From the IMG/VR virus record IMGVR_UViG_3300027754_000075, positions 8,748 to 72,747 of that record: a stretch of 64,000 bases of DNA. One strand, written 5' to 3'. Below are positions 32,381-64,000 of the stretch, piece by piece (within the stretch, counting starts at the first letter, position 1; each line of letters starts with the position of its first letter). Under the pieces are notes generated by a model. It worked only from the letters and a program-made list of their open reading frames with translations, searched no databases and was not told where the DNA came from. This DNA comes from a virus. Position numbers and translations under genes: made by a program.

Positions 32381-32381
32381 A

Positions 32382-34228: not shown

Positions 34229-34830
34229 TTAAATAATTGATAATCTTTGAAATAATACTCTCGAATCCAACTTTTTACTTCATCCTCACATTTTAATTTA
34301 TCATAAAAATCTGTTGGTAATCTATCATAAGTATATCTTTTACATTTAACTGACAAATTAACATTAAAATTTTCACTTATCCATTGCAAAAAATTTTCAC
34401 CAAATCCATCTTCATATTTCCATACTTTTGTAGTTGGAGATAAAAATTTATACTGATCTAAAAACCAATTTGTTTCATAACTTGTTATCTCTTTTTCAAA
34501 AGTTAAGTAACTGAACAAATTTTCTTTGCTTGAAAGTATAAAATCTATATTAATTTTATTATTATGCAAAACTTGACTTATTGAAGAAATGAATTTATTA
34601 TATGGATCTCTAACCACACAAAATTTTGGCAAATCTTTTACATTTAAATAATAATCATATAATGGATAATGTAAATGATGTTGGTTTACTCCTCTAATTT
34701 GAGATTCATCTTTTTTTGAATTCCATTCATTTGCAATAAATAATTTTATGACATGTCTACCTGCAGTTCTTGGTATATGAACAAAATATAATTCTCTTTC
34801 TTTATCAACAAGTTTGGGCATCAGATACAT
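34213..34830 (-). CDS. sulfotransferase (Sulfotransfer_2-like)
   Basis: YFVHIPRTAG (5'-PSB), VVRDPY..FISS (3'-PB), YYFKDYQLFNY end. Confidence 0.8.
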   Translation of the reverse strand: MYLMPKLVDKERELYFVHIPRTAGRHVIKLFIANEWNSKKDESQIRGVNQHHLHYPLYDYYLNVKDLPKFCVVRDPYNKFISSISQVLHNNKINIDFILSSKENLFSYLTFEKEITSYETNWFLDQYKFLSPTTKVWKYEDGFGENFLQWISENFNVNLSVKCKRYTYDRLPTDFYDKLKCEDEVKSWIREYYFKDYQLFNYNSY

Positions 34831-34850
34831 TAAATAATTATAGATTATAT

Positions 34851-35480
34851 ATGGATATAAAATTACATTCTCTTTTTCCGACCGCTGTTATTTCAGTTCT
34901 TGATAATAATTTTAAATTAACTCAAGAAGAAAAGAAAGTGATTTGGAAATATAAATTAGATGAAAGTGATAATTATCACAACTGTTATGCAAGTAAAAGT
35001 GGTAGAATATTGGAAGATCGTCGTCTCAAACGTTTAAAAAAACATTGTCAACATTATCTTGATTTATATGTAAAAGATATAATGAAGTGCGATAATAAGA
35101 TTCAAATTACAAATTCATGGGGTAACTATTCTTTCACGGGCAATTGCCACAGAAATCATCGTCATTCAAATAGTGTTTTAAGTGGTATTTATTATGTGCA
35201 ATGTAATAATTCAATTCCTATTTTACAATTTGAAAGTCAAACATCTAGATATTTCTTAGAATATAGAGTTGAGGAACAAACTGTTTTTAATAGTTCAACA
35301 TATCAGATAAAATTAGAGGATGGTATGTTAGTAATTTTTCCATCACACATCTGGCATTCTGTTCCCGAAAATAAATCATCTAATTGGAGAATATCCATGG
35401 CATTTAATTCTTTTCTTTTGGGAGAAATTGACAATTATGGATATGAAGAATTGAAAATTAAAAGCACCAATCATGTCTAA
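34851..35480 (+). CDS. putative 2OG-Fe(II) oxygenase (TIGR02466-like)
   Basis: LFPT...ITNSWGN...HRHSNSVLSGIYY...IFPSHIWHSV...RISMAFN; start reassigned to MDIK. Confidence 0.85.
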   Translation: MDIKLHSLFPTAVISVLDNNFKLTQEEKKVIWKYKLDESDNYHNCYASKSGRILEDRRLKRLKKHCQHYLDLYVKDIMKCDNKIQITNSWGNYSFTGNCHRNHRHSNSVLSGIYYVQCNNSIPILQFESQTSRYFLEYRVEEQTVFNSSTYQIKLEDGMLVIFPSHIWHSVPENKSSNWRISMAFNSFLLGEIDNYGYEELKIKSTNHV

Positions 35481-36108
35481 TTCTACAATATTCCCTCTTT
35501 TTTCAACGCCAGTATATAAAACAGAAATTTTATTTAATGAAAAAGAACAATATTTTTTAAAAAATAAATTAGATAAAATAAATTATTTAAAATATGACTC
35601 TGATAATGGATATTCAACAAAACAAAAAAATATATTAAATATATCTTCTCTTTTTAATATAAAACGCCAAATAAATGATCATGTTAATAAGTATGTTTTT
35701 GAAACTTTATGTTTAAACAAAATTGATTTGTACATAACTTCTTCCTGGATAAATCTTCACCAAAAAGGAAATTATGCACAACCACATATACATCAAAATT
35801 CTATTTTTAGTGGAGTTTTATATTTAGAAGTTCCAAACGAAAATTGTGGACAAATTACCTTTCACTTTCCTTTTCAATTACCAACCTTTACATCAAATAC
35901 AATTTATCCAGGAGTAAAAAATAGGAATATATACAATTCACACTCTTGGAGTTTTAATCCAAAATCAGGAGATTTATTAATTTTTCCTTCTCATCTAATG
36001 CACGATGTTGGAATAAATCAATCAGATCAAAACAGATATAGTTTGTCATTTAATTATTTTGCTAGAGGTAAAATATCAGGAGAAAAAACAAAAGAATTAT
36101 ATATTTAA
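35473..36108 (+). CDS. putative 2OG-Fe(II) oxygenase (TIGR02466-like)
   Basis: LFSTP...SSWIN...HIHQNSIFSGVLY...IFPSHLMH.V...RYSLSFN. Confidence 0.85.
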   Translation: MSNSTIFPLFSTPVYKTEILFNEKEQYFLKNKLDKINYLKYDSDNGYSTKQKNILNISSLFNIKRQINDHVNKYVFETLCLNKIDLYITSSWINLHQKGNYAQPHIHQNSIFSGVLYLEVPNENCGQITFHFPFQLPTFTSNTIYPGVKNRNIYNSHSWSFNPKSGDLLIFPSHLMHDVGINQSDQNRYSLSFNYFARGKISGEKTKELYI

Positions 36109-49849: not shown

Positions 49850-50172
49850 AACTCTACAAAATGGCCCAAATTGATCCAACAACTAATAAAATTTTGCACA
49901 TCTCAATATGGGATGATCCAAGCAAAGCGCCTGATTTGGTTGAGCTTCCAGATCTGGCAATTGTCGGAATTACACTAGAAGAGCTAACCCAGAGAATAGA
50001 ATCTGAAAAAGCAAAAATTCAGGAGATAGACAGATTAAGAGAAGAACGGGCAGAAAAGGATTACTTAATGCGGAGGGAAGCACCAGTACCTTATCCAACT
50101 GATGGAGAAAGATATACTTGGAACGAAGAAACTATAAGTTGGGATTTAGTAAGTACTGTTGTAACTAACTAA
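49846..50172 (+). CDS. fibre-associated protein with Trp/Pro motif
   Basis: EAPVPYPTDGERYTWNEETISW; ATGA overlap with the tip gene. Confidence 0.6.
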   Translation: MKLYKMAQIDPTTNKILHISIWDDPSKAPDLVELPDLAIVGITLEELTQRIESEKAKIQEIDRLREERAEKDYLMRREAPVPYPTDGERYTWNEETISWDLVSTVVTN

Positions 50173-50200
50173 CTAACATAAATAACTAAAAAGAAATAAG

Positions 50201-51082
50201 ATGTCGGTCACAAGAGTACAACTAGTTGGAAATGTAAGTACTGGTGCAAGTTTTGCAGGTATTGTGACTGCAACATCTTTTAGTGGTAATGTAACTGGTA
50301 CTGCAAGTACTGCTTCTTTTGCAACGACTTCTTTTGGTCTTTCTGGAAGTCCTAATATTACTGTAGGAACTGTTACTGGTAATCTTACTGGTAATGCAAC
50401 TGGATTATCTGGTACTCCTAATATTACTGTTGGAAATATTGTAGGTGCAGCACTTACACTTTCTGGTAATCTAACTGTTAATGGTACTCAAACCATTATC
50501 AACACTACAAACCTTGAAATCACAGACTCTTTGATTGGTATTGGTTCTGGTAATACCACAGATGCTCAAGCAGATGGTGATGGTATCCAGATTTATGGTG
50601 CAACTAATAAGACATTAACATTTAATAATACTAAGAAAGCATTTGAGACTAATGTTGCTTGGGCTACAACTGATACAAGGTTTATAAGTGTTGCAGAAAA
50701 ACTTGTAAGAGTAGATGGAAATACTGTTTCATTAGTATACAATACAACTGGTGCTAACATTGGATTTGCAACTAATCCATCAGGTAACATTACTTTAGCA
50801 GTTACTGGTATTCCAACATCAAGTGATTTTGATAATCACGTCATTACTTTTAGTGTATTTGTAAATCAAACTGGTACTGCAAGGTCTTGTACTGCAGTAA
50901 CACTAAATGGAGTCACACCAACGATTAAATTTGCAGGTGGTTCTTTGAGTGCTGCTATTTCTGGTGTAACCACAACATCTGGTTTTGACATTTATAGTTT
51001 TACTGGAATCAATACAGTAGGAAGTGCAAGTACAACTGCTAACTATGCAGTTCTTGGTGTTGTGAATGGAGGATTTAGATGA
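50201..51082 (+). CDS. short tail fibre with C-terminal tip-docking domain
   Basis: Paralog of 29384; ends VLGVVNGGFR. Confidence 0.75.
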   Translation: MSVTRVQLVGNVSTGASFAGIVTATSFSGNVTGTASTASFATTSFGLSGSPNITVGTVTGNLTGNATGLSGTPNITVGNIVGAALTLSGNLTVNGTQTIINTTNLEITDSLIGIGSGNTTDAQADGDGIQIYGATNKTLTFNNTKKAFETNVAWATTDTRFISVAEKLVRVDGNTVSLVYNTTGANIGFATNPSGNITLAVTGIPTSSDFDNHVITFSVFVNQTGTARSCTAVTLNGVTPTIKFAGGSLSAAISGVTTTSGFDIYSFTGINTVGSASTTANYAVLGVVNGGFR

Positions 51083-52008
51083 GTCCTATTATATCAAGAA
51101 CTGGTTTTAGTCTTGGATTTGGAAGACGTAGAGGTGGTGGTGCGATACAGAGCATAAAACCATTGAATATTTCTCCATCAGTATCTGGGAAAAGTATTTG
51201 GGATTTGGGAGTTGATGGAAAACTAACGTTAAATACAGGTACAGATTACACAGTAACAGTTGATAGTCCTATTACTGTTGATTTTAAAATCTGGGGAGCA
51301 GGTGGCGGTGGTGGTTCTTCAGGTGGTGGTGGCGGAGGTGGCTCTGCTACAGGCACGATGAATCTTTTGAACGGAACCTCATATATTATAAGTATTGGTT
51401 CTGGCGGATACAAAACTACTGATTATGTTGCCACAAGTTCTCAAGGAGGAGGTGGTGGAGTTGGCCCAGGATCCTACCCTGCTGGAACTGGTGGTGGATA
51501 TAGTGGAATATTTAGAACTAGTAAAACTCAAGGAAATGCTGTAGTTATTGCCGGAGGTGGTGGTGGTGGGGGATACAATGGCGCAGGTGGTGCTGGAGGT
51601 TACCCATCCGGATCTAATGGTGGTGGTCCATCTGGAGGAGGTGGAGGCACTCCCACTGCTGGGGGTGCTGGGGGTGCTGGGGGTGGTGGCACTGGTCAAA
51701 GTGGATCTGCTTTAACTGGTGGATATTCTGTATCGGGTTCATTAGGTGCTCCTGGTGGAGGAGGTGGCGGTGGATATTATGGTGGCGGTGGCGGTGGATC
51801 ATCCCAAGCTGATACTGGAGGAGGTGGAGGAGGTGGATCAAACTACCAAAATCCAACATACCTCACATCAGTCACTCAATATTCTGGTAGTGGTACCACT
51901 GCAGGAAATTCTTCAGATCCTGACAGAGGAAGTTCTGGTAGTGGTCAACCTTTTCCAGGTTCTTCTGGATCCCCATATGCTGTACCAGGATCTATTGTTT
52001 TATCTTAA
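51079..52008 (+). CDS. Gly-rich tip adhesin
   Basis: KIWGAGGGGG, GGGYSGIF, VIAGGGGGGG, GGGGYYGGGGG, GGGGSNY (gp38/ALK-type polyglycine pattern). Confidence 0.8.
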   Translation: MSPIISRTGFSLGFGRRRGGGAIQSIKPLNISPSVSGKSIWDLGVDGKLTLNTGTDYTVTVDSPITVDFKIWGAGGGGGSSGGGGGGGSATGTMNLLNGTSYIISIGSGGYKTTDYVATSSQGGGGGVGPGSYPAGTGGGYSGIFRTSKTQGNAVVIAGGGGGGGYNGAGGAGGYPSGSNGGGPSGGGGGTPTAGGAGGAGGGGTGQSGSALTGGYSVSGSLGAPGGGGGGGYYGGGGGGSSQADTGGGGGGGSNYQNPTYLTSVTQYSGSGTTAGNSSDPDRGSSGSGQPFPGSSGSPYAVPGSIVLS

Positions 52009-52095
52009 CTCGTTTACTAATCACCATAAGAACTCTCAAATAATGAAATGATTACTCATCATTCATAAGAACATAAATAACTAAAAAGTAATAAT

Positions 52096-53544
52096 ATGGC
52101 TCTCAACTTTCCTAATAGTCCTACACTTAATCAAGTTTACACTGATACCACATCTGGGTTCTCATATCAGTGGAATGGAACTGTATGGATAAGTTTTAGT
52201 GCAGCATCATCAAACCAAATCAAAGTACTTGACGATATTTCTGGTTCTTTCACAGGAATCGCATTTACCTTTGCACTTACCTCAAGTAGCGCATCAATCT
52301 CACCACCGAATGCACAATCACTGATTATCAACCTTGGTGGTGTAATCCAAGACCCATCTGATGATTATATTGTTTCTGGAAGTAATATTATATTCTCCAC
52401 TGCTCCTAATAATGGATTAAGTTTCTCTGGAGTTTCATTAGGACCTGCAATCCCAGTCACTACAATACCATCTGGTACTGTGACTGGTGGTTCATTTACA
52501 GTTGCTGGTATTCTTTCCACAACAAACCTTTTTGTTTCTGGTATTTCTACCTTTGTTGGTCTTGCGACTCATACTGGAACAATCTTTGGAAGTAACTTAT
52601 CACTAACTGGTGTTGCGACTGCAACCGAGTTTGATATCTCTGGATCATCAAATACACTTACTGCTGGTGGTCTTAGTGTTGGTGTTGCGACTGCAACCGA
52701 GTTTGATATCTCTGGATCATCAAATACACTTACTGCTGGTGGTCTTAGTGTTGGTGTTGCAACTGCCACTACATTTGTTGGAGCACTCACTGGTAATGCA
52801 ACTGGTCTTTCTGGTACTCCTAATATTACTGTTGGAAATATAACTGGTTCTGCAGCAACTTTTACAAACTTAACTGTTAATGGTACTCAAACCATTATCA
52901 ATACTACTTCATTAGAAATCACAGATAAGAATATTGGTATTGGTAGTACAAGTTCTCCAACTGATGCACTTGCTGATGGTGCTGGTATTACGATTTATGG
53001 AACAACAAATAAAACAATCACCTGGGAAAGAGATACTGGATGCTTTGAGTATAATCAACCAAGTAAGTTTAAGGGTGTTATTGAGACTGTATCCACTGCA
53101 TCAACTTATGACCTAGGTGGTGGTAGAGTTGTTCTTGAGTTAGATGTAAGAAATGCAACGACTTATACTCATAGTCTAACGAATGGTACAGTAGGTATTG
53201 TGTCCTTTAAGAATATGCCTGCGGATACTGGTGTTTCTAATGGTACAACAATCACTGTCCTGTTTACTCAAAACTCTGCTGGTACTGCAAATACAACAGT
53301 AGCAACTGGTATTGGTACTAACTGTTTTATTGTTGGATTTGAGGATGGAGCAACAGTCGCAGGTATTTCAACCAGAGCACTTGTAGGTAGTGCAACGACT
53401 GTAACACTCTCAACAACTGGTAGTGATAGAGACTTTGTATCATTCTTTGTGCATTATACTGGTGGTACGAATACTACTGCATCAAGTTATCAGGTTTATG
53501 CCACCAAGAACGGTGGATTCCGTCAAGGAACCGTAGGAGTTTGA
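52096..53544 (+). CDS. tail fibre with C-terminal tip-docking domain
   Basis: MALNFPNSPT...YQWNGTVW; LDDISGSF...GGVIQDP; ends YATKNGGFRQGTVGV. Confidence 0.75.
   Translation: MALNFPNSPTLNQVYTDTTSGFSYQWNGTVWISFSAASSNQIKVLDDISGSFTGIAFTFALTSSSASISPPNAQSLIINLGGVIQDPSDDYIVSGSNIIFSTAPNNGLSFSGVSLGPAIPVTTIPSGTVTGGSFTVAGILSTTNLFVSGISTFVGLATHTGTIFGSNLSLTGVATATEFDISGSSNTLTAGGLSVGVATATEFDISGSSNTLTAGGLSVGVATATTFVGALTGNATGLSGTPNITVGNITGSAATFTNLTVNGTQTIINTTSLEITDKNIGIGSTSSPTDALADGAGITIYGTTNKTITWERDTGCFEYNQPSKFKGVIETVSTASTYDLGGGRVVLELDVRNATTYTHSLTNGTVGIVSFKNMPADTGVSNGTTITVLFTQNSAGTANTTVATGIGTNCFIVGFEDGATVAGISTRALVGSATTVTLSTTGSDRDFVSFFVHYTGGTNTTASSYQVYATKNGGFRQGTVGV
52609..52760 (+). repeat. 72-bp perfect tandem duplication
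   Basis: GVATATEFDISGSSNTLTAGGLSV twice, identical at DNA level. Confidence 0.92.
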
Positions 53545-53548
53545 TACT

Positions 53549-54547
53549 ATGGCACCTCTTTTTACTGGAAGTAAGTTTGCGTTTGGTTTAAGTCCTCTTG
53601 TTGCTGCTGCTGTTGAACCTGTTGTTGCAGGAGTTTATTTGGATTATGGTTGGTATGGAGGAGCAGAGGGAAGTACAGCCGTAGATAGAATAGATTGGGC
53701 AAATGACACAGTTACTGCGTCTGCCAGAGGATCTAATCGTGCATCAAGCAGCAGAGGTGGAGGTTTGTCAAATCTTACACATGGTTGGTTTTCTGGTGGT
53801 TATATAGAAGCACTCGGTGGTGGCATGAGCACGGTTGATAGAATAACCTATGCAAGTGACCTGTCAGGAGGAAGTGCAAGAGCAAACTGCCCACAATCAT
53901 CAAATGGGCGTCCAGGTGGATTTAGCAATACCACATATGGATATTGGGGTCCAGGAATGAGTAGCAACGGTGGTGCCGCAAGTAGTGAGATTACCAGAGT
54001 TGATTTTGCTAATGATTTAACTGCTCCCGCAAACAGAACTAATACTGCATCTCCGTATATAGCACATACTGGAGGTGCTTCTGATTTCTCAACCTATGGA
54101 TGGTTGTTAGGCGGTGGGTTCGGTGGCGCAGGGGGGGTAACTGGTCCAACCTGGTCATCAGTTTATAGATTGACCTATGCAAGTGACACTTCTGCATTAT
54201 CTACAAGAGGAAATTTGGCAAATATGTCAACTGGATTTGCATGTGGAAATCAAACACATTGTTGGATTGGTGGATCTAATGATAGTCTTGTAAGTTCAAT
54301 AACTAGAGTAACATTTTCAAATGATTTAGCAACATCAACCAATAGAGGAAATTTGGTAAGAGCAATGCGCCGCAGTGGATCTGGAAGCAATACTTATATT
54401 TGGTGGGCCGGTGGTTATGTGAGTGGTACTTCTTATAGTGACGTTGAAAGAATGGAATATGTAAATGATTTATCAACACTCTCTCCAAGAGGTCCCATGT
54501 CTCTTTCTCGTACATGCTTGGCAACAAATCATATGACTTTGGGATAA
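53549..54547 (+). CDS. six-repeat Kelch-like beta-propeller tip protein
   Basis: Six units of about 45-55 aa: YGW..GG....S.VDRI.(Y/F)ANDT.....RG. Confidence 0.7.
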   Translation: MAPLFTGSKFAFGLSPLVAAAVEPVVAGVYLDYGWYGGAEGSTAVDRIDWANDTVTASARGSNRASSSRGGGLSNLTHGWFSGGYIEALGGGMSTVDRITYASDLSGGSARANCPQSSNGRPGGFSNTTYGYWGPGMSSNGGAASSEITRVDFANDLTAPANRTNTASPYIAHTGGASDFSTYGWLLGGGFGGAGGVTGPTWSSVYRLTYASDTSALSTRGNLANMSTGFACGNQTHCWIGGSNDSLVSSITRVTFSNDLATSTNRGNLVRAMRRSGSGSNTYIWWAGGYVSGTSYSDVERMEYVNDLSTLSPRGPMSLSRTCLATNHMTLG

Positions 54548-54548
54548 T

Positions 54549-55127
54549 ATGATTGAGATTTTTGATGATTTGTTTTGTGAAGAAGATTTAAATAAAATTG
54601 AAAATAATTTTACCTCAAATCATTTTCCTTGGTATCTTTCTGGAAATTTTACAGTTAATGATTTTCATTATCAAAATTTAAAAAATAAAACAACAAAAGA
54701 ATATCTTCAATTTTGTCATGTGTTTTATGATGAGGATATTCATAACAAAGATTGTCAATATGAAAAATCTCCATATTTTTTTCCAATACAAACAATATTA
54801 AATAAATACCCAATAAAAAATTTAAAGAGAATTAAGGCAAATTTTCAACCAAGGTGTGAATCTTTTAAATCATATGAACACAATACTCCACACATCGATT
54901 GTTTAACTTTTCACGATGTTATTTTATATTATGTAAATGAAAGTGATGGCGACACTTTTATTTTTGATAAAGAAATGAATATTTTAAAAAGAATAGAGCA
55001 TAAGAGAGGAAGATTAGTTAGATTTAATGGGGCATATTTTCATGCAGGGTCTCATCCATCAAAGAATAACAGTAGGATTACAATAAATTTCAATACACTA
55101 ACTTCATACAAACAATTTTTATTATAA
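54549..55127 (+). CDS. 2OG-Fe(II) oxygenase
   Basis: RIKANF...NTPHID...LYYVNESDGDT...FHAG...RITINFN. Confidence 0.82.
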   Translation: MIEIFDDLFCEEDLNKIENNFTSNHFPWYLSGNFTVNDFHYQNLKNKTTKEYLQFCHVFYDEDIHNKDCQYEKSPYFFPIQTILNKYPIKNLKRIKANFQPRCESFKSYEHNTPHIDCLTFHDVILYYVNESDGDTFIFDKEMNILKRIEHKRGRLVRFNGAYFHAGSHPSKNNSRITINFNTLTSYKQFLL

Positions 55128-55181
55128 ATAAACCAAGTAAAAGTAAGTTTTTCTTAAAAATATTGCTTAATAAATTTAAAA

Positions 55182-55832
55182 ATGTCTGTTTTGATTGCTC
55201 TTCCTTGTTATGGGGGATTGGTGAGTGAAAAAACCACCTCATCATTATTTAAACTGGGAAAGTTATTTTCTCGTCAGGATATTCCTCATGGACTATTAAC
55301 TCTCGCAAATTCTTCTTTGATTACTCATGGAAGATCTAAGATTGCTAATTTTTTCATAAATAATACGAATTATGAGTATCTATTTTTTCTTGATAGTGAT
55401 ATTGGGTTTGATTCAAAGTATGTGATTCGTTTAATAAATCATCATAAAGATATTGTTTCTGGAGCATATCCAATGAAGACAATACCTATTCGTTATAACT
55501 TTACATTATCAAAACCTGAGGTGAGAGATGGTAATTTAATTGGAATTGATAGTATTGGAATGGGATTTGTTTTAATTCATAGAAAGGTTTTTTTAGATAT
55601 TGCTAAATCACATCCAGAACTTAAATATTTTCCAGGACTTGATAAAAGTAATGAAAAACCAACTGAAAAAGAATATCATAATTCATATCATTACTTTTCT
55701 GAAATGAAAAAAGATTCTCAGTTTTTATCAGAAGATATAAGTTTTTTTCATAGAGCAAAATCAATCGGTTATGAAATTTGGTTGGATACTTCTATAGAAT
55801 TAGAACATATTGGTTCTCACGTTTTTAAGTAA
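55182..55832 (+). CDS. GT-A fold glycosyltransferase
   Basis: IALPCYGG, SLITHGR, LFFLDSDI (DxD), GMGFVLIHR, SEDISF...H.G. Confidence 0.8.
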   Translation: MSVLIALPCYGGLVSEKTTSSLFKLGKLFSRQDIPHGLLTLANSSLITHGRSKIANFFINNTNYEYLFFLDSDIGFDSKYVIRLINHHKDIVSGAYPMKTIPIRYNFTLSKPEVRDGNLIGIDSIGMGFVLIHRKVFLDIAKSHPELKYFPGLDKSNEKPTEKEYHNSYHYFSEMKKDSQFLSEDISFFHRAKSIGYEIWLDTSIELEHIGSHVFK

Positions 55833-55862
55833 AATTTAAAATAATTCAAACACATTTAATTT

Positions 55863-56477
55863 ATGAGACGTAATATTATTATTGCTGACAATTTTTATGA
55901 CAATCCAGATGAGATTAGAAATGTTGCTATTAATTTAGAATATCCAGAACAAAATAAAGACAACACATATCCGGGAAGAAATTCATCTAAAACTTATTAT
56001 ACAAAAGAAGCACATCAAAAAATACAAAATCTTATTGGTAAAAAAATAAATTATGTTCCAAGTTCTGCATGTGGAGATTTTAGAATCTCGTATGAGGAGG
56101 ACACTTGTAAACAATATATTCATGTTGATGGAGATTATGATTGGGGAGGAGTTATTTTTTTAAATCCACCAGAACAATGCATTGTTGATGCAGGAACTTC
56201 TTTCTATAGACACAAATCATTAAGAACAGAGAAAGCACCCATAAATTCAAAAGATGGTGCAATATTTGGATATACGAATTATCAAGAAGTGAGAAAAAGT
56301 ATGATTTATGAAGATGGTTTTGATAAGTCTAAATGGGATTGTTATTTGACCACACCTATGATTTATAATAGAATAGTATTGTTTCGTCCTTGGTTATGGC
56401 ACTCTCATTCAAAAAATTTTGGAGACAATATTTACAATTGCAGATTAGTTCAATTACTATTCTATAAAAATGAATAA
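55863..56477 (+). CDS. 2OG-Fe(II) oxygenase (DUF6445-like)
   Basis: IADNFYDNPD...YPGR...IHVD...WGGVIFL...GTSFYRH...YNR..LF...WHS...FG...RLVQ. Confidence 0.78.
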   Translation: MRRNIIIADNFYDNPDEIRNVAINLEYPEQNKDNTYPGRNSSKTYYTKEAHQKIQNLIGKKINYVPSSACGDFRISYEEDTCKQYIHVDGDYDWGGVIFLNPPEQCIVDAGTSFYRHKSLRTEKAPINSKDGAIFGYTNYQEVRKSMIYEDGFDKSKWDCYLTTPMIYNRIVLFRPWLWHSHSKNFGDNIYNCRLVQLLFYKNE

Positions 56478-57294
56478 AACATATTTTTTTATGTCAGGTC
56501 TTCCAAGGTCTGGGAGCACTCTTTTAAAAAGTATTCTCAATCAAAATCCAGAAATACATTGCAGCCCTATTTCTCCAGTACTGGATTTAATGTTTCACAC
56601 TCAACAATACTTTTTAACAAGTGAGCAGGCACTGGCATATCCAAAACCAAATCAAGAAAAATTAATTATCTCAGATCTAATCAAACAATTCTATAGTGAT
56701 AAAAATGAAAGAGTAATTATAGATCATTCTCGTGCTTGGGTAAATAATTTAAAAAGAATTGAATTTTATATTACGGAGACTCCAAAAATTTTATGCCCTG
56801 TTCGGGATATTTTGGAAATATTGACATCATTTATTATACTCGTTCATAAAAATCAAAATAAGATTTCATTTATTGATAAAAGTTTGATCAAAGCAAATAT
56901 GCCGATTACTGATGATAATCGTTGTGAGTTTTTAATGAGTTCAATTGGAATAGTTGGATTATCGATGCAGGCTTTTCGTGAAGGATATGCTAATGGGCAT
57001 GGGAAATATTTTTATAATATTGAATATGAAGATCTTATATGTAATCCAGAAAAAACTTTAGATGGGATTTATAATTATCTTGAATTGGATTATTATAAGC
57101 ACGATTTAAATTGTATTGAAAATAATTACAAAGAATTAGACTCTCAAATTTGGGGGATTGATGATATGCACAAAGTTCGTAAAGAAATTAAAAAAATATC
57201 CCCAAAACCAAAAAATGTTTTGACAACACATATTATGAACAAATATGTTAATAAGGAATTTTGGCGTAAAAAATACAATACATTTTTATTATAA
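56470..57294 (+). CDS. sulfotransferase (Sulfotransfer_3-like)
   Basis: FMSGLPRSGSTLLKSILNQNP; PVRDI.EILTS; IEYEDL..NP. Confidence 0.88.
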   Translation: MNKTYFFMSGLPRSGSTLLKSILNQNPEIHCSPISPVLDLMFHTQQYFLTSEQALAYPKPNQEKLIISDLIKQFYSDKNERVIIDHSRAWVNNLKRIEFYITETPKILCPVRDILEILTSFIILVHKNQNKISFIDKSLIKANMPITDDNRCEFLMSSIGIVGLSMQAFREGYANGHGKYFYNIEYEDLICNPEKTLDGIYNYLELDYYKHDLNCIENNYKELDSQIWGIDDMHKVRKEIKKISPKPKNVLTTHIMNKYVNKEFWRKKYNTFLL

Positions 57295-57301
57295 AAAAAT
57301 T

Positions 57302-59074
57302 ATGAAATCGGGTGCAAGTGAATCTTCTTATATTTTTCTTCAAAATTATATAAAGATTCCAAAACATATACATATTTCCCACATACCACAAGATCTTTAT
57401 AAATCAAGAAAACAAGTAAAGATTTTATGGGCTCAACATGCATATGACCAACCACATTATATTAATTTTAATAAAAATGTGATTGATTTGATTATATGTC
57501 CATCTGAATGGGCAAAGGAACAATTCATTAAATATCTTAAAGTTCCAGAAAACAAATTAAAGGTGATTAAAACGGGAGTAAATGAGATTTTTACTCCATC
57601 AAAAAACAAAACCAAAACTTTTATTCACACATCTATTCCATATAAAGGTTTGGAATTATTGCCATATATTTTTCCCAAAGTTTTAGAAAAACATCCAGAT
57701 GCGAAACTTAAAGTTTTTTCATCTATGGGACTTTATGAAATAGAAGAAGATCCATATAAAAAAATATATGAAAAACTAAAATCAATTCCAAATGTAGAAT
57801 ATTCTCCTGCAGTCGATCAAAATGAGTTAGTAAAAGCATATCAAGAAGCAGCATTTTTCATTCATCCAAATATATGGGAAGAAACTTTTTGTGTTTCTAT
57901 GGTTGAAGGAATGTCGTGTGGTTGCTATCCAATTATTACAGATATTGGAGCAATACCTGAGATTTCTAAAGGTATTGCAAGTATAGTTCCAATAGAAGGA
58001 ACTCGAACATCCTCTAAATATGAAGTAACAGAGACATTCATAAATAACTTTGTTGAGGCATGTATTAATGCTTGCAATGTTTTCGAAAAAGATCGGTTAT
58101 ATTATGATAAAATTTCATTAAAGATTTCAAATATTACAAAAAAATGTTATGATTGGGGAACAATTTCACAAAAATGGAAACAATTATTAGAGGAGTATCA
58201 AATGAGTGAAAAATTTGAAGAGTTAAATATTATTACATCTCAAGAAGCAATAAGAGAAGATAAAGATTATTTAAAACAGGCATTTGACAATGTTCTCAAA
58301 TGGGAAGAAAGTGATAAAGAACTTGCACAAGGAAGAACTAACTTTCAACTAGAAAAGTTTTTTCTTCTCGAACAATATACAATTCCTGCTGCATTTCAAG
58401 CTGCTATCAAGAATAGACGTTCTATGGCAGAGGCATATATGCAAAAACTCATTGAAATGAAACAAAAGTATCGTGAATTTGAATATAAGTGGAAAGATAA
58501 AGATAAAACTCAACCTATTGAATGGTACGCTACTGGTCCCAATTCTGGAGGGACTAAATTGTGCTGGTATGATTTGGATAAATTTGAAATTACCAATTTT
58601 TTAAAATCTGCAGAACTTGAAATCAGAGATCGGATTCAACAAATACAATTCTTTGATCGTATTATTGAAAAACTAATTGAAAAAAATGGAGGAAAATTAG
58701 TTACCAAAGAGCAATTTGAAGATGAGGATCACGTTTATTGGGAACGTCGTTTTGCTGAACAAGCATTTGACGAAATTATTTCCAAACAAAGTGGAATTTC
58801 TATCGGAAATCTTCATTCAATGCGCCGTGGTACTGCTCCTACATTGGTTACTGGAGATCAAAACATAATAAAAGGTGGTTATCCGGAACTTGGACTTGCT
58901 CTAAATCCAGAAACTTCTCTTCAGTTTCTTCAAGAACTTCAACAAAAAATTATTTCTGGTATGGAAGAGATTACAGGAGAAAAATCTGGCATTTTAAAAG
59001 AACAATCTCAACAACTTCCACAAGAATCTTTTTTTAATAATGATTCTGGTATGCAATTTTATCATGAAGAATGA
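57302..59074 (+). CDS. GT4 (GT-B) glycosyltransferase fused to a C-terminal helical domain
   Basis: GASE, CPSEW, FIHTS.PYKGL, WEETFCVSMVEGMSCG; in-frame internal SD and ATG at 58202. Confidence 0.82.
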   Translation: MKSGASESSYIFLQNYIKIPKHIHISHIPQDLYKSRKQVKILWAQHAYDQPHYINFNKNVIDLIICPSEWAKEQFIKYLKVPENKLKVIKTGVNEIFTPSKNKTKTFIHTSIPYKGLELLPYIFPKVLEKHPDAKLKVFSSMGLYEIEEDPYKKIYEKLKSIPNVEYSPAVDQNELVKAYQEAAFFIHPNIWEETFCVSMVEGMSCGCYPIITDIGAIPEISKGIASIVPIEGTRTSSKYEVTETFINNFVEACINACNVFEKDRLYYDKISLKISNITKKCYDWGTISQKWKQLLEEYQMSEKFEELNIITSQEAIREDKDYLKQAFDNVLKWEESDKELAQGRTNFQLEKFFLLEQYTIPAAFQAAIKNRRSMAEAYMQKLIEMKQKYREFEYKWKDKDKTQPIEWYATGPNSGGTKLCWYDLDKFEITNFLKSAELEIRDRIQQIQFFDRIIEKLIEKNGGKLVTKEQFEDEDHVYWERRFAEQAFDEIISKQSGISIGNLHSMRRGTAPTLVTGDQNIIKGGYPELGLALNPETSLQFLQELQQKIISGMEEITGEKSGILKEQSQQLPQESFFNNDSGMQFYHEE

Positions 59075-59679
59075 AGCAAAAAATTATTATAGTTGATAAT
59101 TTTTACGAAAATCCATGGGAATTTCATCAAGCAGCAATCAATGCTGAATATGAAACTTATCAAAATGCAAATTATCCCGGAAGAAATACAACCCAAAAGT
59201 TTTTTAGTGAAGAAGCACATAAAAAATTATGTCAAATATTGGGCAGAAAAATTATTCCTTCAAATGATTCTTCTTGTGGTAGTTTTCGTTCGGTTTTAGA
59301 AGATGAAAAAGGAAAACTTACAGTTCACAGTGATTCATTTGATGATTGGGCAGGAGTTTTATATCTAACTCTTCCTAGTCATTGTGAAGGAAAACCAGGA
59401 ACAAGTTTTTACATTCATAAACAAACTGGACTTGATCATTTTCCTACAGACGAAGAAATTAAAATGTCTGGATGGACCAATGTTTGGGAAATAAAACAAG
59501 GATTTTCAACAGTTGATACTAATGATCCAAGTGCTTGGAATAAATATTCCACAATTTTTATGAGGTATAATCGTTTGGTTTTATTTGACACCAAATTATG
59601 GCACAGTCCAGAACCTGGTTTTGGCAACTCTTTAAATAATTCTAGAATAGTGCAATTATTTTTTTTAAAAAACGTTTAA
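59071..59679 (+). CDS. 2OG-Fe(II) oxygenase (DUF6445-like)
   Basis: Paralog of 55863: VDNFYENP, YPGR, VHSD, WAGVLYL, LWHS, RIVQLFF. Confidence 0.78.
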   Translation: MKQKIIIVDNFYENPWEFHQAAINAEYETYQNANYPGRNTTQKFFSEEAHKKLCQILGRKIIPSNDSSCGSFRSVLEDEKGKLTVHSDSFDDWAGVLYLTLPSHCEGKPGTSFYIHKQTGLDHFPTDEEIKMSGWTNVWEIKQGFSTVDTNDPSAWNKYSTIFMRYNRLVLFDTKLWHSPEPGFGNSLNNSRIVQLFFLKNV

Positions 59680-59687
59680 ATTACAAA

Positions 59688-60356
59688 ATGAACCCTTTAT
59701 CAAATATTTTAATTAAATCGAATGTTATAACACAAAAAGGAATTGATTTTTTTGTTGATTATATCAAATCACAAAAACAAAGTGATCTTGAAATATTTGA
59801 TGCAAAGACATCAAATGTGCAAAATAAAAACATTAAAAATCCTACATGGAAAACTGACAAATCAGTTAGGGATACTCAAACAGTTTCAATTGATTCTATT
59901 TTGCCTCAAACACACGATTTATTGAAAAATGTCGTTACCAATATTATAAATCCATTTTATAATATTGAAATACATGATAGTGAAATTCCACAATTGTTAG
60001 TCTATAATGTGGGGGGGCATTATAATCCCCATATTGATGGTGAGTCTCCATGGACCAATCCAGATAAAAGTGTTATTTGGAGAAAAATTGCAGACAGAGA
60101 TTTATCAGTTATTCTTTATTTGAATGATGATTTTGAAGGTGGAGATCTTATTTTTCCTGATCTTCACATTCACATTAAACCAAAACCTGGTCTTCTAGTC
60201 ACCTTTCCATCCACACATTTGTATAGACATGGAGTTACTCCAATATCTAAAGGAAAACGTTATGCAATTATAACTTGGATGACTATTAAAGGATTCCCAA
60301 CAGTTAAGGATCAAGAAGAAGAGTTTTCAAAAAAATTTAATATAGATTTGACATAA
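59688..60356 (+). CDS. prolyl 4-hydroxylase-like 2OG-Fe(II) oxygenase
   Basis: Y..GGHYNPHID...LSVILYLNDDFEGGDL.F...FPS...Y.HGVTP...G.RYAIITW. Confidence 0.9.
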   Translation: MNPLSNILIKSNVITQKGIDFFVDYIKSQKQSDLEIFDAKTSNVQNKNIKNPTWKTDKSVRDTQTVSIDSILPQTHDLLKNVVTNIINPFYNIEIHDSEIPQLLVYNVGGHYNPHIDGESPWTNPDKSVIWRKIADRDLSVILYLNDDFEGGDLIFPDLHIHIKPKPGLLVTFPSTHLYRHGVTPISKGKRYAIITWMTIKGFPTVKDQEEEFSKKFNIDLT

Positions 60357-60376
60357 TCACAGACCTGATATATAAT
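60348..60376 (+). promoter_or_regulatory. sigma70-type early promoter
   Basis: Exact TTGACA-17nt-TATAAT, followed by an AGGAGG RBS. Confidence 0.85.
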
Positions 60377-60408
60377 ACTCCTGAATACATTATAAGGAGG
60401 ATGAACTT

Positions 60409-61029
60409 TTGGCGATGCAATCAATTTGGTATTATTCAAACTTACCAGAAGATATCGTAAATATCATAGAACGAGACCTCACAGAGAACTTTGATCCCTC
60501 AATGGGTGACAGTCGTTTACACGGTGATGCTCTCAACAAAGAAAAAAGAAACTCACAAAATACCTGGATACCAACAACACACTGGGTTGCTGGTTTCCTG
60601 TGGCACTATGTACAGAGAGCAAATCGTGAGAACTTTCTGTATGATTTGAGAAATATTGATGGTGAAAGTCTTCAATATACTCGTTATGAGGCAGGACAGT
60701 TTTATGGGTGGCATAATGATGCAGGACTTGCAACACAATACAAACCTCAATCAGTTGGTAATCGTGCAGAAGGACTTGCAAACGACTTTGTGAATGAGAA
60801 CATTGAACTTGTAAGGAAACTTTCATTCTCACTGCAACTTTCGGATCCTGATGATTACGAAGGTGGCAACGTACAACTTTTAGATGAGGCAGGACAAAGT
60901 TATATCGCACCAAGAAAGCGTGGAACGATTGTACTTTTTGACTCCCGTACTCAACATCGGGTTCTTAAAGTAACGAAAGGAACTCGTAAGAGCATTGTAG
61001 GCTGGGTTGTGGGAAAAAGGTGGTGTTGA
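60409..61029 (+). CDS. PKHD-type 2OG-Fe(II) hydroxylase
   Basis: QYTRY..GQFYGWHND...RKLSFSLQLSDP.DYEGG...FDSR..HRV..VTKG.RKSIVGW; TTG start. Confidence 0.9.
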   Translation: MAMQSIWYYSNLPEDIVNIIERDLTENFDPSMGDSRLHGDALNKEKRNSQNTWIPTTHWVAGFLWHYVQRANRENFLYDLRNIDGESLQYTRYEAGQFYGWHNDAGLATQYKPQSVGNRAEGLANDFVNENIELVRKLSFSLQLSDPDDYEGGNVQLLDEAGQSYIAPRKRGTIVLFDSRTQHRVLKVTKGTRKSIVGWVVGKRWC

Positions 61030-61066
61030 CCCCCGATGGAGGTAATACTATAAGAGGACACAAACT

Positions 61067-61783
61067 ATGGAACAAATGAACGAACTGCAACTGCAATGGC
61101 AGGAAAGGACGAATACAGGAACTTCTTGGACTCATAATGAAAGTTTTGAGAAGAATGGATACCTGGTTATCAAGGACTTATGGGACCCAGAAGAACTTTA
61201 TCATCCACTTCCACCAGAAAGAGGACAGATAAACTACTGGGGCAAGAATATGGATCAGTTTAATCACGATCCAGTAGAGCAACAAGTAGAGGGATCACTG
61301 GCACGTTATTGGCACCCACAATATCGTAAGATTCATACTGGTATTCGTCTCAAACTAGAAGAAGTCATTGGTCGGAAACTTTATAATACTTATTATTATG
61401 ATCGTTTTTATTTCCCAGGACAACCACTATTAAAACACGCAGACAGAGATGCCTGTGAGATTTCTGTGAGTGTTCATATCTCTACAACTGTCAAAGAATG
61501 CTGGCCTTTTATCATCAAGACCCCAGACACTTATGTGGATAAGAAGAAAAAGGATGTAGTATTGGTTCCTGGTGAAGAACGTTCTTTATGTTTAGAACCT
61601 GGTGATGGATTACTTTATAAAGGATGTGAGAGACCACATTGGAGAGATCCAATGCCCGGTGGAAAGAAACGTAAGAAACTTTTTGGTAAGTCAATAACAG
61701 AAGATTACTACCATCAAATATTTTTTCATTATTGCCTCCAAGATGGACAGAGAGCACACACGGCTTGGGATAAAGCACGTTGA
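61067..61783 (+). CDS. 2OG-Fe(II) oxygenase-like protein
   Basis: KHADRDACEISVS...PGDGLLYKGCERPHWR...YHQIFFHY; paralog of 32382. Confidence 0.82.
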   Translation: MEQMNELQLQWQERTNTGTSWTHNESFEKNGYLVIKDLWDPEELYHPLPPERGQINYWGKNMDQFNHDPVEQQVEGSLARYWHPQYRKIHTGIRLKLEEVIGRKLYNTYYYDRFYFPGQPLLKHADRDACEISVSVHISTTVKECWPFIIKTPDTYVDKKKKDVVLVPGEERSLCLEPGDGLLYKGCERPHWRDPMPGGKKRKKLFGKSITEDYYHQIFFHYCLQDGQRAHTAWDKAR

Positions 61784-61786
61784 GAT

Positions 61787-62341
61787 ATGAAAACTCCACT
61801 CTTCTCTTACCCCTCTTATCAGTATCAAGTAAATGATTGGTCGTTTAAGAAAAAATCACTACTCAACAGAATCAACTCTCAAAAGTTTGTAAGAACCTCT
61901 ATACAAACCTTTGAGAGCGACAGAAGCACAAACAATAAGTCTTACGTTCACTATTTCCAAGACTTAATTCGTCCAGAGTTATTTGAGTTTTGTAAAGAAG
62001 CAGAAGTATCTTGTAGTATGACTGATTGTTGGACGGTGAGATATCGCAAAGGTGATTATCAAACAGTTCACAATCATCGTTCCTGGGGTTTCTCACTTGT
62101 TCTTTATGTTGAGTATGACCCAAAAGTTCATACTCCCACAACATTTGTATGTCCTTGGCAAGACCCAAGAACTGACACAACAAGTCTTGTATGTCCTCAA
62201 GATGTTTGTGAAGGAACATTGTTTATTGTTCCTTCTTATACACTTCATTATGCAACACCGAATCTATCAAACAAAACCAGAACAGTTATATCAGCAGACT
62301 TACTTCCTAAACTTCCAGAACATCAAACCATAAATAACTAA
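61787..62341 (+). CDS. putative 2OG-Fe(II) oxygenase (TIGR02466-like)
   Basis: YQTVHNH...EGTLFIVPS..LH...RTVIS; paralog of 31826. Confidence 0.8.
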   Translation: MKTPLFSYPSYQYQVNDWSFKKKSLLNRINSQKFVRTSIQTFESDRSTNNKSYVHYFQDLIRPELFEFCKEAEVSCSMTDCWTVRYRKGDYQTVHNHRSWGFSLVLYVEYDPKVHTPTTFVCPWQDPRTDTTSLVCPQDVCEGTLFIVPSYTLHYATPNLSNKTRTVISADLLPKLPEHQTINN

Positions 62342-62352
62342 AAAAAAGTATT

Positions 62353-62532
62353 ATGTACCGCATACAAAAGTCAGAGAACATTCAGGGACAACTTAAAGAG
62401 ATCTATTATCAAGGTAATTATCGTTGGAATACTGATTTCAGTGTTCGTAAACTTTATGAAACTGCAGAAGAAGCACAAGCAGACCTATATTCTTTTGGTG
62501 GTGAAATAAGTGCCGAAGTCGTTGGTGAATAA
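62353..62532 (+). CDS. small hypothetical protein (59 aa)
   Basis: Not in the ORF track. MYRIQK...IYYQGNYRW...RKLY; late promoter at 62329. Confidence 0.7.
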   Translation: MYRIQKSENIQGQLKEIYYQGNYRWNTDFSVRKLYETAEEAQADLYSFGGEISAEVVGE

Positions 62533-62726: not shown

Positions 62727-63146
62727 ATGCTCACGATTTATACAAGCGGTTATTCATACTCTCACAAGCACTGCTGTGCCCTTGTAATCTGGTTTTGTGA
62801 GAAGTATCTACCCAGACATAAGATTGAGATAGAAGTTCTTCACAGGGGTCTTGTGAGAGAAGGTGTTTATGGTTGGTGTAGTATTCAGGATTGTGACTGG
62901 AGACCACGAAGTTTTTTGATTGAGATTCATAATCGTCTTTCAAAAGAAGATTATATGAAGACAATATTTCACGAAATGCAACATATTTTACAACATATTC
63001 GTGGTGATTTAAGAGATAAGAGAGGTATTCGTTGCTGGAAAGGTATTGATTGTTCTGATTTAGATTATAAAGAAATGCCATGGGAAACCGATGCTCATCA
63101 AAGAGAACTGGATCTTTATGAAGAGTACTTGACAGAGCATTCATAA
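62727..63146 (+). CDS. HExxH zinc metallopeptidase-like protein
   Basis: TIFHEMQHILQH and PWE.DA motifs. Confidence 0.75.
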   Translation: MLTIYTSGYSYSHKHCCALVIWFCEKYLPRHKIEIEVLHRGLVREGVYGWCSIQDCDWRPRSFLIEIHNRLSKEDYMKTIFHEMQHILQHIRGDLRDKRGIRCWKGIDCSDLDYKEMPWETDAHQRELDLYEEYLTEHS

Positions 63147-63157
63147 ATTGATATAAT
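63129..63157 (+). promoter_or_regulatory. sigma70-type early promoter
   Basis: Exact TTGACA-17nt-TATAAT. Confidence 0.8.
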
Positions 63158-63953: not shown

Positions 63954-64000
63954 TTGACCCCAAAGATGATGCTCCGTGGCTTGATACCAAGTATGATGGT
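63950..64000 (+). CDS. hypothetical protein (truncated by window end)
   Basis: ATGA overlap; MIDPKDDAPWLDTKYDG is open to the edge. Confidence 0.5.
   Translation, partial: MIDPKDDAPWLDTKYDG

Follow-up and report, generated by a model that had tools for sequence, protein, structure and literature searches.

The stretch of viral DNA analysed here, hereafter the window, comprises 64,000 nt (positions 8,748 to 72,747) of IMG/VR record IMGVR_UViG_3300027754_000075, itself a 72.7-kb fragment with a completeness estimate of 35 %. All genes of the window, from approximately position 850 to position 64000, are carried by the plus strand, and the region includes large fibre-like proteins with matches to tail-fibre and virion families of PHROG, as well as an S74 chaperone domain. 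The closest records belong to the Kyanoviridae, namely Synechococcus phage Bellamy and Marine virus AG-345-L05 (a single-cell genome), and a near-identity search of a phage collection with the window returned no match. Sequencing runs containing the stretch bear freshwater, lake and marine metagenome labels and originate from 13 studies, with none of those listed being RNA. At 52096–60356 the window harbours a fibre gene and a β-propeller gene followed by genes for oxygenases, two glycosyltransferases and a sulfotransferase. Judged by sequence comparison, this region represents a single example of a cassette conserved among cyanophages, in which Kelch-like propeller genes are accompanied by a fixed set of tailoring enzymes.

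The run begins behind a late-promoter-like core, ATAAATA, at 52073–52079, with the gene for a fibre protein of 482 aa (52096–53544) that has tail-fibre and virion structural matches in PHROG, and whose paralogues in Bellamy display 56 and 45 % identity. Four nucleotides separate it from the open reading frame (ORF) of the propeller protein (53549–54547, 332 aa), named the tip in a preliminary description of this DNA, and 1 nt beyond the propeller stop at 54547 begins a gene for a 2-oxoglutarate (2OG)-Fe(II)-oxygenase-like protein of 192 aa (54549–55127). A second late-promoter-like element, TATAAATA, at 55123–55130 precedes the enzyme block, which encodes a GT-A-type glycosyltransferase of 216 aa (55182–55832), a DUF6445 protein of 204 aa with a predicted 2OG-oxygenase fold (55863–56477), a sulfotransferase of 274 aa nearest to protein-tyrosine sulfotransferases (TPSTs; 56470–57294), a short GT4 glycosyltransferase fused to an orphan C-terminal domain (57302–59074), a second DUF6445 protein of 202 aa with 41 % identity to the first (59071–59679) and a prolyl-hydroxylase-like (P4H-like) 2OG-Fe(II) oxygenase of 222 aa (59688–60356). 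A perfect sigma-70 consensus promoter of early type (TTGACA-17-TATAAT, 12/12) at 60348–60376 spans the end of this last gene and closes the block; like the genes, all three promoter elements are on the plus strand.

The preliminary description had listed this gene order, the six repeats of the propeller, the single nucleotide behind its stop, TATAAATA at 55123, the kinds of enzyme and the early promoter, and ORF analysis, Pfam searches and motif scans recovered each of them; the enzyme identities given there are likewise upheld by Pfam, PDB profiles and fold matches. Its statement that several genes overlap is accurate for the DUF6445 and sulfotransferase genes (8 nt) and for the GT4 and second DUF6445 genes (4 nt), both of which are real overlaps. 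It does not extend to the 50-nt overlap of the sulfotransferase and GT4 genes, which probably arises only from the choice of the longest ORF (609 aa, from 57245), because the consensus of a 27-row alignment begins at the invariant window residue M20, placing the likely GT4 start at nt 57302. The GC content falls from approximately 40 % across the fibre genes to 29–30 % across 54–60 kb (approximately 30 % over 54–56 kb), with AT-rich sequence, as read by eye, beginning at 54549. Bellamy retains the flanking genes at 70–87 % identity, without the propeller and without the enzymes.

In translation, the six repeats of the window propeller contain the segments VDRIDWAND, VDRITYASD, ITRVDFAND, VYRLTYASD, ITRVTFSND and VERMEYVND, summarized by the motif D/T-R-[IVLM]-x-[WYF]-[ASV]-[NS]-D. 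Each repeat spans approximately 47–50 residues and corresponds to one four-stranded blade, as in a six-bladed Kelch-type propeller. An AlphaFold2 (AF2) model built from a 55-sequence alignment has a predicted local distance difference test score (pLDDT) of 78.6 and a predicted template modelling score (pTM) of 0.80, with 24 strands listed, and the Foldseek matches listed for it include the Kelch domains of Keap1, KLHL12 and KLHL3 (TMq 0.70–0.76, E-values down to 1.8 × 10−15). A Pfam scan of the window protein returned no family, and Kelch_3 is matched by just 1 of 55 family members; the protein is thus predicted to possess a Kelch-like fold outside the Pfam Kelch families. Its fold matches in BFVD include Kelch-like proteins that Pseudomonas jumbo phages encode under the name 'virion structural proteins'.

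The wider family extends well beyond this one protein, with 82 homologues of approximately 320 aa in metagenomes, and with propeller proteins of 305 to 1914 aa in related loci. When a blade hidden Markov model (HMM) was applied to 125 non-identical proteins, 100 contained 6, 12, 18, 24, 30 or 36 blades, equivalent to one to six tandem propellers, and the other 25 were fragments or were one or two blades short. The consensus of 1546 blades reads G-N-S-N-Y-G-[WY]-F-G-G-G-x-x-P-x-S-T-V-D-R-I-D-[YF]-S-N-D-T-A-T-A-S-[PV]-[RK]-G-P-L-S-x-A-R-x-x-L-A-A-T-G, with D26 conserved at 98 %, N25 at 79 % and T or S at position 27 at 88 %; the [YF]-S-N-D stretch comes after strand B of each blade in the AF2 model. 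Proteins with several propellers have in common a short N-terminal peptide of the type RGIF.L..V...Q..G.W. The family is almost exclusively viral, with 255 confirmed IMG/VR stretches as opposed to two contigs of metagenome-assembled genomes (MAGs) among the genomes of 185,579 prokaryote species (one per species), and no cassette enzyme was found near the propeller match in either MAG contig.

Blade residues also differ with gene context. Where a glycosyltransferase gene lies immediately upstream, blade position 23 of the propeller is F (82–98 %) and position 25 is N (99 %). Behind DUF6445 and sulfotransferase genes, position 23 is Y (91 and 57 %, respectively), and in tandem single propellers position 25 is T (64 %). 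Because position 23 co-varies with position 7, this pattern (loci L001–L073) may mark no more than subfamilies. Tyrosine 23 was considered as a sulfation site and is kept as a lead only, as it co-varies with an inner-strand aromatic residue and is probably buried.

Amongst the enzymes, the P4H-like protein matches PF13640 at 60.9 bits (cut-off 27; E = 2.4 × 10−16), and H115, D117, H181 and R191 are invariant in its 13-sequence family; we take the first three to be the HxD...H iron triad and R191 to be the basic 2OG-binding residue. Its profile finds collagen P3H1 (E = 5.9 × 10−12) and a Bacillus anthracis P4H (E = 1.5 × 10−10) in the PDB, so that prolyl hydroxylases are the best match and peptidyl proline is a candidate substrate. 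The two DUF6445 proteins belong to PF20043 (E = 9.2 × 10−10 and 8.7 × 10−13 for the first and second copy). The AF2 model of the first (pLDDT 91.2) retrieves, amongst the Foldseek matches listed, 2OG-Fe(II) oxygenases and halogenases together with a few uncharacterized proteins, with TMq of 0.47–0.61 for the top ten; on the strength of this model, DUF6445 has the double-stranded β-helix fold of 2OG oxygenases. Its conserved residues are H117 (invariant in one alignment and at least 90 % in another), N169, R170 and H180. Alignment of DUF6445 to the P4H-like family using hhalign gave no match, nor did its profile match PDB sequences, and no paper on DUF6445 was found in the open literature.

The sulfotransferase scores 54.2 bits against Sulfotransfer_3 (PF13469; cut-off 27, E = 3.2 × 10−14), and an alignment of 22 sequences reveals invariant G10, P12, R13, G15, T17, R112 and S120, with a loop reading GLPRSGST. 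TPSTs bind 3′-phosphoadenosine 5′-phosphosulfate (PAPS) via a GxPRSGS/T-T-L loop and have a downstream Arg...Ser pair. Searching the PDB with the 22-sequence profile returns TPST1/2 as the best match (E = 4.8 × 10−11), followed by polyketide sulfotransferases of the CurM type, so that by profile comparison the cassette enzyme is closest to protein-tyrosine sulfotransferases. In the GT4 protein, Glycos_transf_1 (PF00534) covers residues 118–240 of the 609-aa ORF (55.8 bits versus a cut-off of 26.4, E = 5.3 × 10−15), and E213 and E221, presumably the E-x7-E motif, are invariant across 27 sequences. Approximately 100 residues precede this domain, and Glyco_transf_4 matches them through its last 54 positions only, below its cut-off. 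The C-terminal domain of approximately 290 aa is strongly conserved, and several contigs as well as phage S-SKS1 encode it as a separate gene; searches of Pfam and the PDB found no relative, and its only match in the Atlas is a viral cluster with the same fusion architecture. A complex prediction pairing the propeller with this domain scored 0.01.

The GT-A protein is matched in the PDB by the GT-A enzyme STIV A197 (E = 7.5 × 10−4 as a single sequence and 3.9 × 10−7 with a profile), and its family has an invariant D71-x-D73 (DxD) and E184-D185. No Pfam family was returned for it, and a glycosyltransferase match in PHROG reaches only E = 4.7 × 10−8, with no stretch passing alone. The 2OG-like protein at 54549–55127 has a weak PF13640 match (E = 2 × 10−4, 22.6 bits, below the 27-bit cut-off) and a clear one to phrog_274 (E = 5 × 10−36); no homologue of it occurs in the 65 propeller loci described below, making this gene specific to the window.

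With regard to relatives, use of the propeller profile alone as bait yielded the 255 viral stretches, from which 65 loci were kept, many of them shortened by contig ends. HMM searches of these loci detected the GT4 C-domain in 48, the P4H-like oxygenase in 45, DUF6445 in 39, the sulfotransferase in 36 and the GT-A enzyme in 30. For the 38 loci of at least 15 kb, the corresponding counts are 32, 25, 31, 29 and 28, and after dereplication to 46 clusters they are 37, 34, 32, 31 and 24. Reciprocally, a propeller is present in 34 of 38 loci collected by P4H-like orthologues, and in all 11 of those that reach at least 15 kb. A control set of 42 loci anchored on distant 2OG oxygenases contained no propeller, sulfotransferase or GT4 C-domain (0/42). 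Clustering of ORFs without supervision across 72 loci returned, as its six most widespread families, exactly the six cassette families. The set thus defined by sequence comprises the P4H-like oxygenase, one or two DUF6445 proteins, the A197-like GT-A enzyme, the short GT4 with its orphan C-domain and the TPST-like sulfotransferase, alongside the propellers. The preliminary description had proposed to ask whether propeller, GT4 fusion, sulfotransferase and DUF6445 genes form a conserved cassette, and these four, with the GT-A and P4H-like genes, do travel together in many cyanophage contigs. Independent assortment of the enzyme genes and the tip, the outcome that by its own account would have spoken against that description, is thus not what the counts show. 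The fibre gene, which opened the cluster as it was then drawn, recurs in only 1 of the 65 loci and falls outside the conserved set.

Gene arrangement is similarly constrained. Across 128 representative loci, the 627 cassette ORFs are co-directional without exception, and relatives show an alternation of enzyme and propeller genes, often in the order GT-A, propeller, DUF6445, sulfotransferase, propeller, GT4 fusion, propeller and P4H-like. The most frequent adjacent pairs are propeller to P4H-like (70), sulfotransferase to propeller (53), DUF6445 to sulfotransferase (34) and GT-A to propeller (27). Upstream proteins in these relatives match tail-fibre, baseplate and virion PHROGs. Two additional families lie within such loci, are absent from the window and match no Pfam or PHROG family: one of approximately 131 aa, after the P4H-like gene in 23 loci (e.g. 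L004:11510–11905), and one of approximately 164 aa, between DUF6445 and the sulfotransferase in 13 loci (e.g. L038:4624–5118).

A different organization is seen in a propeller-less locus, L169 (182–17943), in which a sulfotransferase, a GT-A enzyme, a GT2/methyltransferase fusion, a DUF6445 protein and a 341-aa ORF, read by eye and without a scan as a UDP-galactopyranose mutase, lie between two collagen-like fibres. The first of these fibres has 2285 aa, and the second possesses a tail-collar-like end and has an N-terminal MALNFP...WNG..W motif in common with the fibre of the window. When collagen-like targets were sought in the window itself, only short G-x-y runs were found.

Late expression of the block, proposed in the preliminary description, finds support at the motif level only. 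Of the 27 ATAAATA cores in the window, 24 are on the plus strand, and many sit just 5′ of ORF starts, including those at 52073 (before 52096) and 55124 (before 55182). In relatives, NATAAATA occurs within 100 nt upstream of 28/43 P4H-like, 22/50 DUF6445, 22/119 propeller, 5/44 GT4, 4/25 GT-A and 0/42 sulfotransferase genes, against a background of 0.027 per 100 nt. Exact copies of the 8-mer TATAAATA are no more frequent in the window than chance predicts (4 observed versus 6.5 expected), and the case for late promoters is made from strand and position within the window together with the upstream motifs of relatives.

The preliminary description further stated that the window has no genes for the synthesis of nucleotide sugars or PAPS, and a search of the entire 72.7-kb record (35 % complete) agrees, detecting no APS kinase, ATP sulfurylase, epimerase, NTP_transferase or GDP-mannose-dehydratase family. 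ATP sulfurylase was found in none of five carrier records, and APS kinase in none of the three complete carrier genomes; epimerase-family genes are present elsewhere in all five cassette-bearing records. Supply of PAPS by the host is plausible, because a Synechococcus elongatus control genome contains both families of the PAPS pathway. A family found in seven loci (e.g. L053:10914–11708) consists of a 264-aa P-loop protein encoded downstream of propellers and beside nrdA/nrdB, and its N-terminal 90 residues match APS_kinase (E = 1.6 × 10−11) along with many generic P-loop models. Given this breadth of matches and its position adjoining nrdAB, it was not counted as a gene for PAPS synthesis.

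Photosynthesis genes (psbA/psbD) occur in four of the five carrier records, including all three complete genomes (208–223 kb). Among cultured phages, the only tblastn match to the propeller was S-SKS1 (genus Llyrvirus, host Synechococcus WH7803), which has a partial cassette with propellers, a sulfotransferase and a GT4 C-domain gene. Two features of its sequence (NC_020851) have bearing on its annotation: an unannotated ORF of approximately 455 codons between SWZG_00286 and SWZG_00287 (L007:11817–13181, minus strand) has strong matches to the propeller profile, and the P4H-like orthologue (L007:11125–11807, minus strand) occupies two reading frames and appears in the annotation as a pair of short genes.

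In sequencing runs of three different studies, a single contig each covers approximately 53.4–60.4 kb, that is, the tip and all enzymes, at approximately 97 % identity and flat depth. The flanks in these runs are fragmentary and 5–30 times deeper. Across four metagenome runs, the summed contig depth over the fibre genes (50000–53400) and the genes behind the early promoter (60400–62500) is 5–30 times that of 53.5–60.4 kb, which suggests, the depth figures being weak and serving as a hint only, that these flanks are common to many co-occurring phage genotypes without this block. Two joints skip from 51.1–51.8 kb to 60365–60368, although their sides are short (37 and 24 letters) and the intervening sequence is undefined. 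There is a hint in this of a block that can be exchanged as a whole, with the early promoter as its limit.

Beyond that promoter, at 60409–62341, lie genes for a PF13640 oxygenase (60409–61029, 87 % identity to Bellamy gene 46), a 2OG-FeII_Oxy_5 protein and a protein of 238 aa, all kept in the cassette-less Bellamy, and a second perfect sigma-70 consensus is found at 63129–63157. Elsewhere in the window, 31229–36108, the first tailoring cluster of the preliminary description, forms a second low-GC block (26–27 %) with no adjoining propeller gene. The genes within it are five for 2OG-oxygenase-like proteins, one for a methyltransferase-like protein and one for a Sulfotransfer_2 protein on the minus strand. 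Genes flanking it have paralogues in the flanks of the propeller block, as seen for those at 32400 and 61067 (44 %), 31850 and 61787 (40 %), 29438 and 52096 (71 %), and 29510 and 50201 (76 %).

Taken as a whole, the conserved, co-directional and alternating arrangement argues for a functional tie of the enzymes to the propeller proteins, as do the negative control with distant 2OG oxygenases, the near confinement of the propeller family to viruses, and the resemblance of two of the enzymes to protein modifiers. A location on the virion is suggested because the cassette ends a late structural module whose upstream neighbours match fibre and baseplate PHROGs, because propeller-less loci have a collagen-fibre context, and because Kelch-type propellers have precedents in phage particles. 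We consequently propose, at a probability of roughly one half, that the region is a late-expressed system which hydroxylates, glycosylates and sulfates propeller appendages of the virion, and perhaps neighbouring fibres. Under this proposal, the late-type motifs at 52073 and 55123 would drive a fibre–propeller–2OG unit and an enzyme unit alongside the structural genes. The oxygenases would then hydroxylate propeller side chains in the cytoplasm, the two glycosyltransferases would attach sugars taken from host nucleotide sugars, and the sulfotransferase, with host PAPS, would sulfate a tyrosine or a sugar. A candidate site of modification is the exposed S-N-D-T-A-T-A-S loop, which occurs once per blade. 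Finally, the decorated propellers, singly or in strings of up to six, would join the virion as fibre-associated appendages. A more specific picture, tentative and of clearly less than even probability, is of sulfated and glycosylated 'beads-on-a-string' appendages, in which the blade loops of one to six Kelch-like propellers would undergo hydroxylation, glycosylation and sulfation by dedicated enzymes of the virus to form a proteoglycan-like anionic coat. The complete pathway, the fibre tip, the decoration of virion proteins and the possible imitation of sulfated exopolysaccharide of the host, all put forward in the preliminary description, are similarly interpretative.

A number of observations weigh against virion tailoring. 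All links between enzymes and propellers come from gene neighbourhood, and we infer which substrate is modified, in what order and by what chemistry, and that it resides on the virion; in cyanophages, hypervariable regions beside fibre genes also gather accessory genes. The sulfotransferase is not tied solely to propellers, with 39 of 80 loci anchored on it having one and 41 having none, and a late motif of their own is rare for GT-A and sulfotransferase genes. The latter enzyme resembles TPSTs only modestly (45.7 bits), most chains matching it through no more than the PAPS-binding N-terminal part, and the polyketide sulfotransferases score against the same profile. For DUF6445, an HxD motif is present in both window copies and in a long subfamily, but is missing from a short one. 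The conserved blade residues (D, N, T and the aromatic) may be purely structural, the aromatic at position 23 co-varying with an inner-strand aromatic. Lastly, the copy in the window is atypical, having one small propeller ahead of contiguous enzymes, none between them, and an RGP motif that is mostly lost.

The strongest competing explanation, albeit an unlikely one, is that the glycosyltransferases and sulfotransferase remodel the host envelope, altering lipopolysaccharide, exopolysaccharide or surface glycoproteins for superinfection exclusion or escape from grazing, with the propellers being unrelated receptor- or glycan-binding neighbours. Published accounts usually interpret clusters of cyanophage glycosyltransferases in this manner (PMC12801897), and both S-SRM01 and L169 pair a sulfotransferase with a nucleotide-sugar epimerase or with the ORF read as a UDP-galactopyranose mutase. 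The epimerase-family genes elsewhere in all five cassette records, and the sulfotransferase loci that have no propeller, fit this explanation also. Conversely, no flippase, polymerase, priming transferase or nucleotide-sugar gene was found in the block among the few families tested, propeller genes alternate strictly with those for the enzymes, the nearest structural relatives of two of the enzymes act on proteins, and the late motifs suggest timing with virion assembly.

Two other explanations appear improbable to a similar degree. In one, the propellers serve as adaptors that bind host proteins and present these, as the true targets, to the hydroxylases, transferases and sulfotransferase. 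Protein binding is the best-known role of Kelch domains, the Foldseek matches include Keap1 and KLHL12 peptide complexes, and the co-occurrence data fit adaptors and substrates equally well; nonetheless, propellers strung together up to six at a time (36 blades, 1914 aa) behind a short common N-terminal peptide look structural rather than adaptor-like, no second interaction domain is seen, and the cassette is located at the end of the late structural module. In the other, there is no functional link at all, and accessory enzymes have accumulated in a hypervariable slot by the fibre genes, co-occurring with propellers through shared descent of a single island. The block is indeed a compositional island (29–30 versus approximately 40 % GC), Bellamy is without it whilst keeping the flanks, and the two short-sided joints run from one flank to the other. 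Against passive co-inheritance, the set persists across proteins just 40–55 % identical, in different gene orders and in S-SKS1, a phage of another genus, and the catalytic residues are invariant, which is a degree of conservation unexpected for unrelated passengers.

Less probable still is the tailoring of a small molecule, with the oxygenases, transferases and sulfotransferase making or modifying a secondary metabolite, as Iyer et al. 2010 (PMC2938197) propose for the tandem dioxygenases of Syn9 in the accessible part of that paper. WelO5, BesD-like enzymes and EctD, which are small-molecule halogenases and hydroxylases, are amongst the fold neighbours of DUF6445, yet the widespread families of the 72 loci revealed no enzyme that would form a scaffold, and the tie to propeller genes would go unexplained. 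Hypermodification of DNA, with an oxygenase hydroxylating a base to which the glycosyltransferases add sugars, is very improbable: phage glycosyltransferases often target DNA (PMC12619734) and 59688–60356 has a weak Tet_JBP match (E = 0.0024), but this reaches 17.6 bits against a cut-off of 34.9 compared with 60.9 bits for PF13640, the best structural relatives of the protein are prolyl hydroxylases, the sulfotransferase and propellers would have no role, and the late promoter stands with structural genes. The preference of the preliminary description for protein decoration over DNA modification is accordingly favoured in so far as the sulfotransferase and the P4H-like protein resemble protein-modifying enzymes, the substrate itself being the inferred part.

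Comparison with known systems reveals partial parallels for virus-directed tailoring. TPST1/2 are the best PDB sequence matches of the sulfotransferase profile, at only 45.7 bits, and, unlike the cassette enzyme, TPSTs are membrane enzymes of the eukaryotic Golgi. In Mimivirus, L230 hydroxylates and glucosylates collagen, and chloroviruses glycosylate their capsids, such that viral enzymes act on viral structural proteins in the cytoplasm. These are giant viruses of eukaryotes with collagen or capsid substrates, and we know of no sulfation in either system. Mycobacteriophage glycosyltransferases modify the structural proteins of their own virions (Freeman et al. 2023, as cited in PMC12619734 and PMC12801897); there, the glycans reside on the C-termini of capsid and tail-tube subunits, and the citing text, where accessible, involves no oxygenases, sulfotransferase or propellers.

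Nearest in composition are the bacterial operons described by Iyer et al. 2010 (PMC2938197), in which β-hydroxylases, PhyH-type oxygenases and sulfotransferases accompany tail-collar or collagen-like proteins as predicted substrates. The accessible portion of that paper also notes cyanophage dioxygenase arrays, which it assigns to secondary metabolism. As in those operons, the cassette combines 2OG oxygenases and a sulfotransferase with a fibre-like non-enzymatic protein predicted to be hydroxylated and then sulfated, this being a prediction in both cases, and loci of the L169 type have collagen-like and tail-collar-like fibres in common with them. By contrast, the operons are cellular, often include a PAPS synthetase and are not reported, in the portion accessible, with Kelch-like propellers or two glycosyltransferases, whereas the present set is viral, has a propeller partner and is without PAPS genes in the 72.7-kb record and in the carrier genomes searched. 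For the propeller itself, CBB_552 of phage vB_PcaM_CBB is a Kelch-type propeller found in virions by mass spectrometry (PMC5259590). It and the jumbo-phage proteins have in common with the window protein a six-bladed Kelch-like propeller, in those cases as part of phage particles, although identity is just 11–18 %, and the accessible accounts report no tandem chains or linked tailoring enzymes.

No description of the cassette was found in the open literature, with subscription papers and supplements being out of reach, nor was any open-literature paper that joins phage with tyrosine sulfotransferase, prolyl 4-hydroxylase and glycosyltransferase, or with sulfotransferase, tail fiber and glycosyltransferase. 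It is about an even call whether the cassette represents virus-encoded tailoring of the virus's own structural proteins in a form not found described.

The abundance of 2OG oxygenases in cyanophages has been a puzzle since the first genomes, and the roles suggested for them in the accessible text of PMC3037559 and PMC2938197 are DNA repair, drawdown of 2OG and secondary metabolism. The cassette gives a part of these enzymes concrete partners in a virus-restricted propeller family, a sulfotransferase and two glycosyltransferases, and S-SKS1, being cultured on Synechococcus WH7803, offers an experimental entry point. If the proposed tailoring is true, hydroxylation and sulfation of proteins would join the few known ways in which phages modify themselves, and a new type of virion appendage would be introduced. 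Were the beads-on-a-string arrangement also true, this would be the first phage-encoded system of protein sulfation and a new class of surface structure in phages, common among uncultured cyanophages of fresh and marine waters. The most abundant photosynthetic cells of lakes and oceans are controlled by cyanophages, and it is the surface of their fibres that decides host range and persistence.

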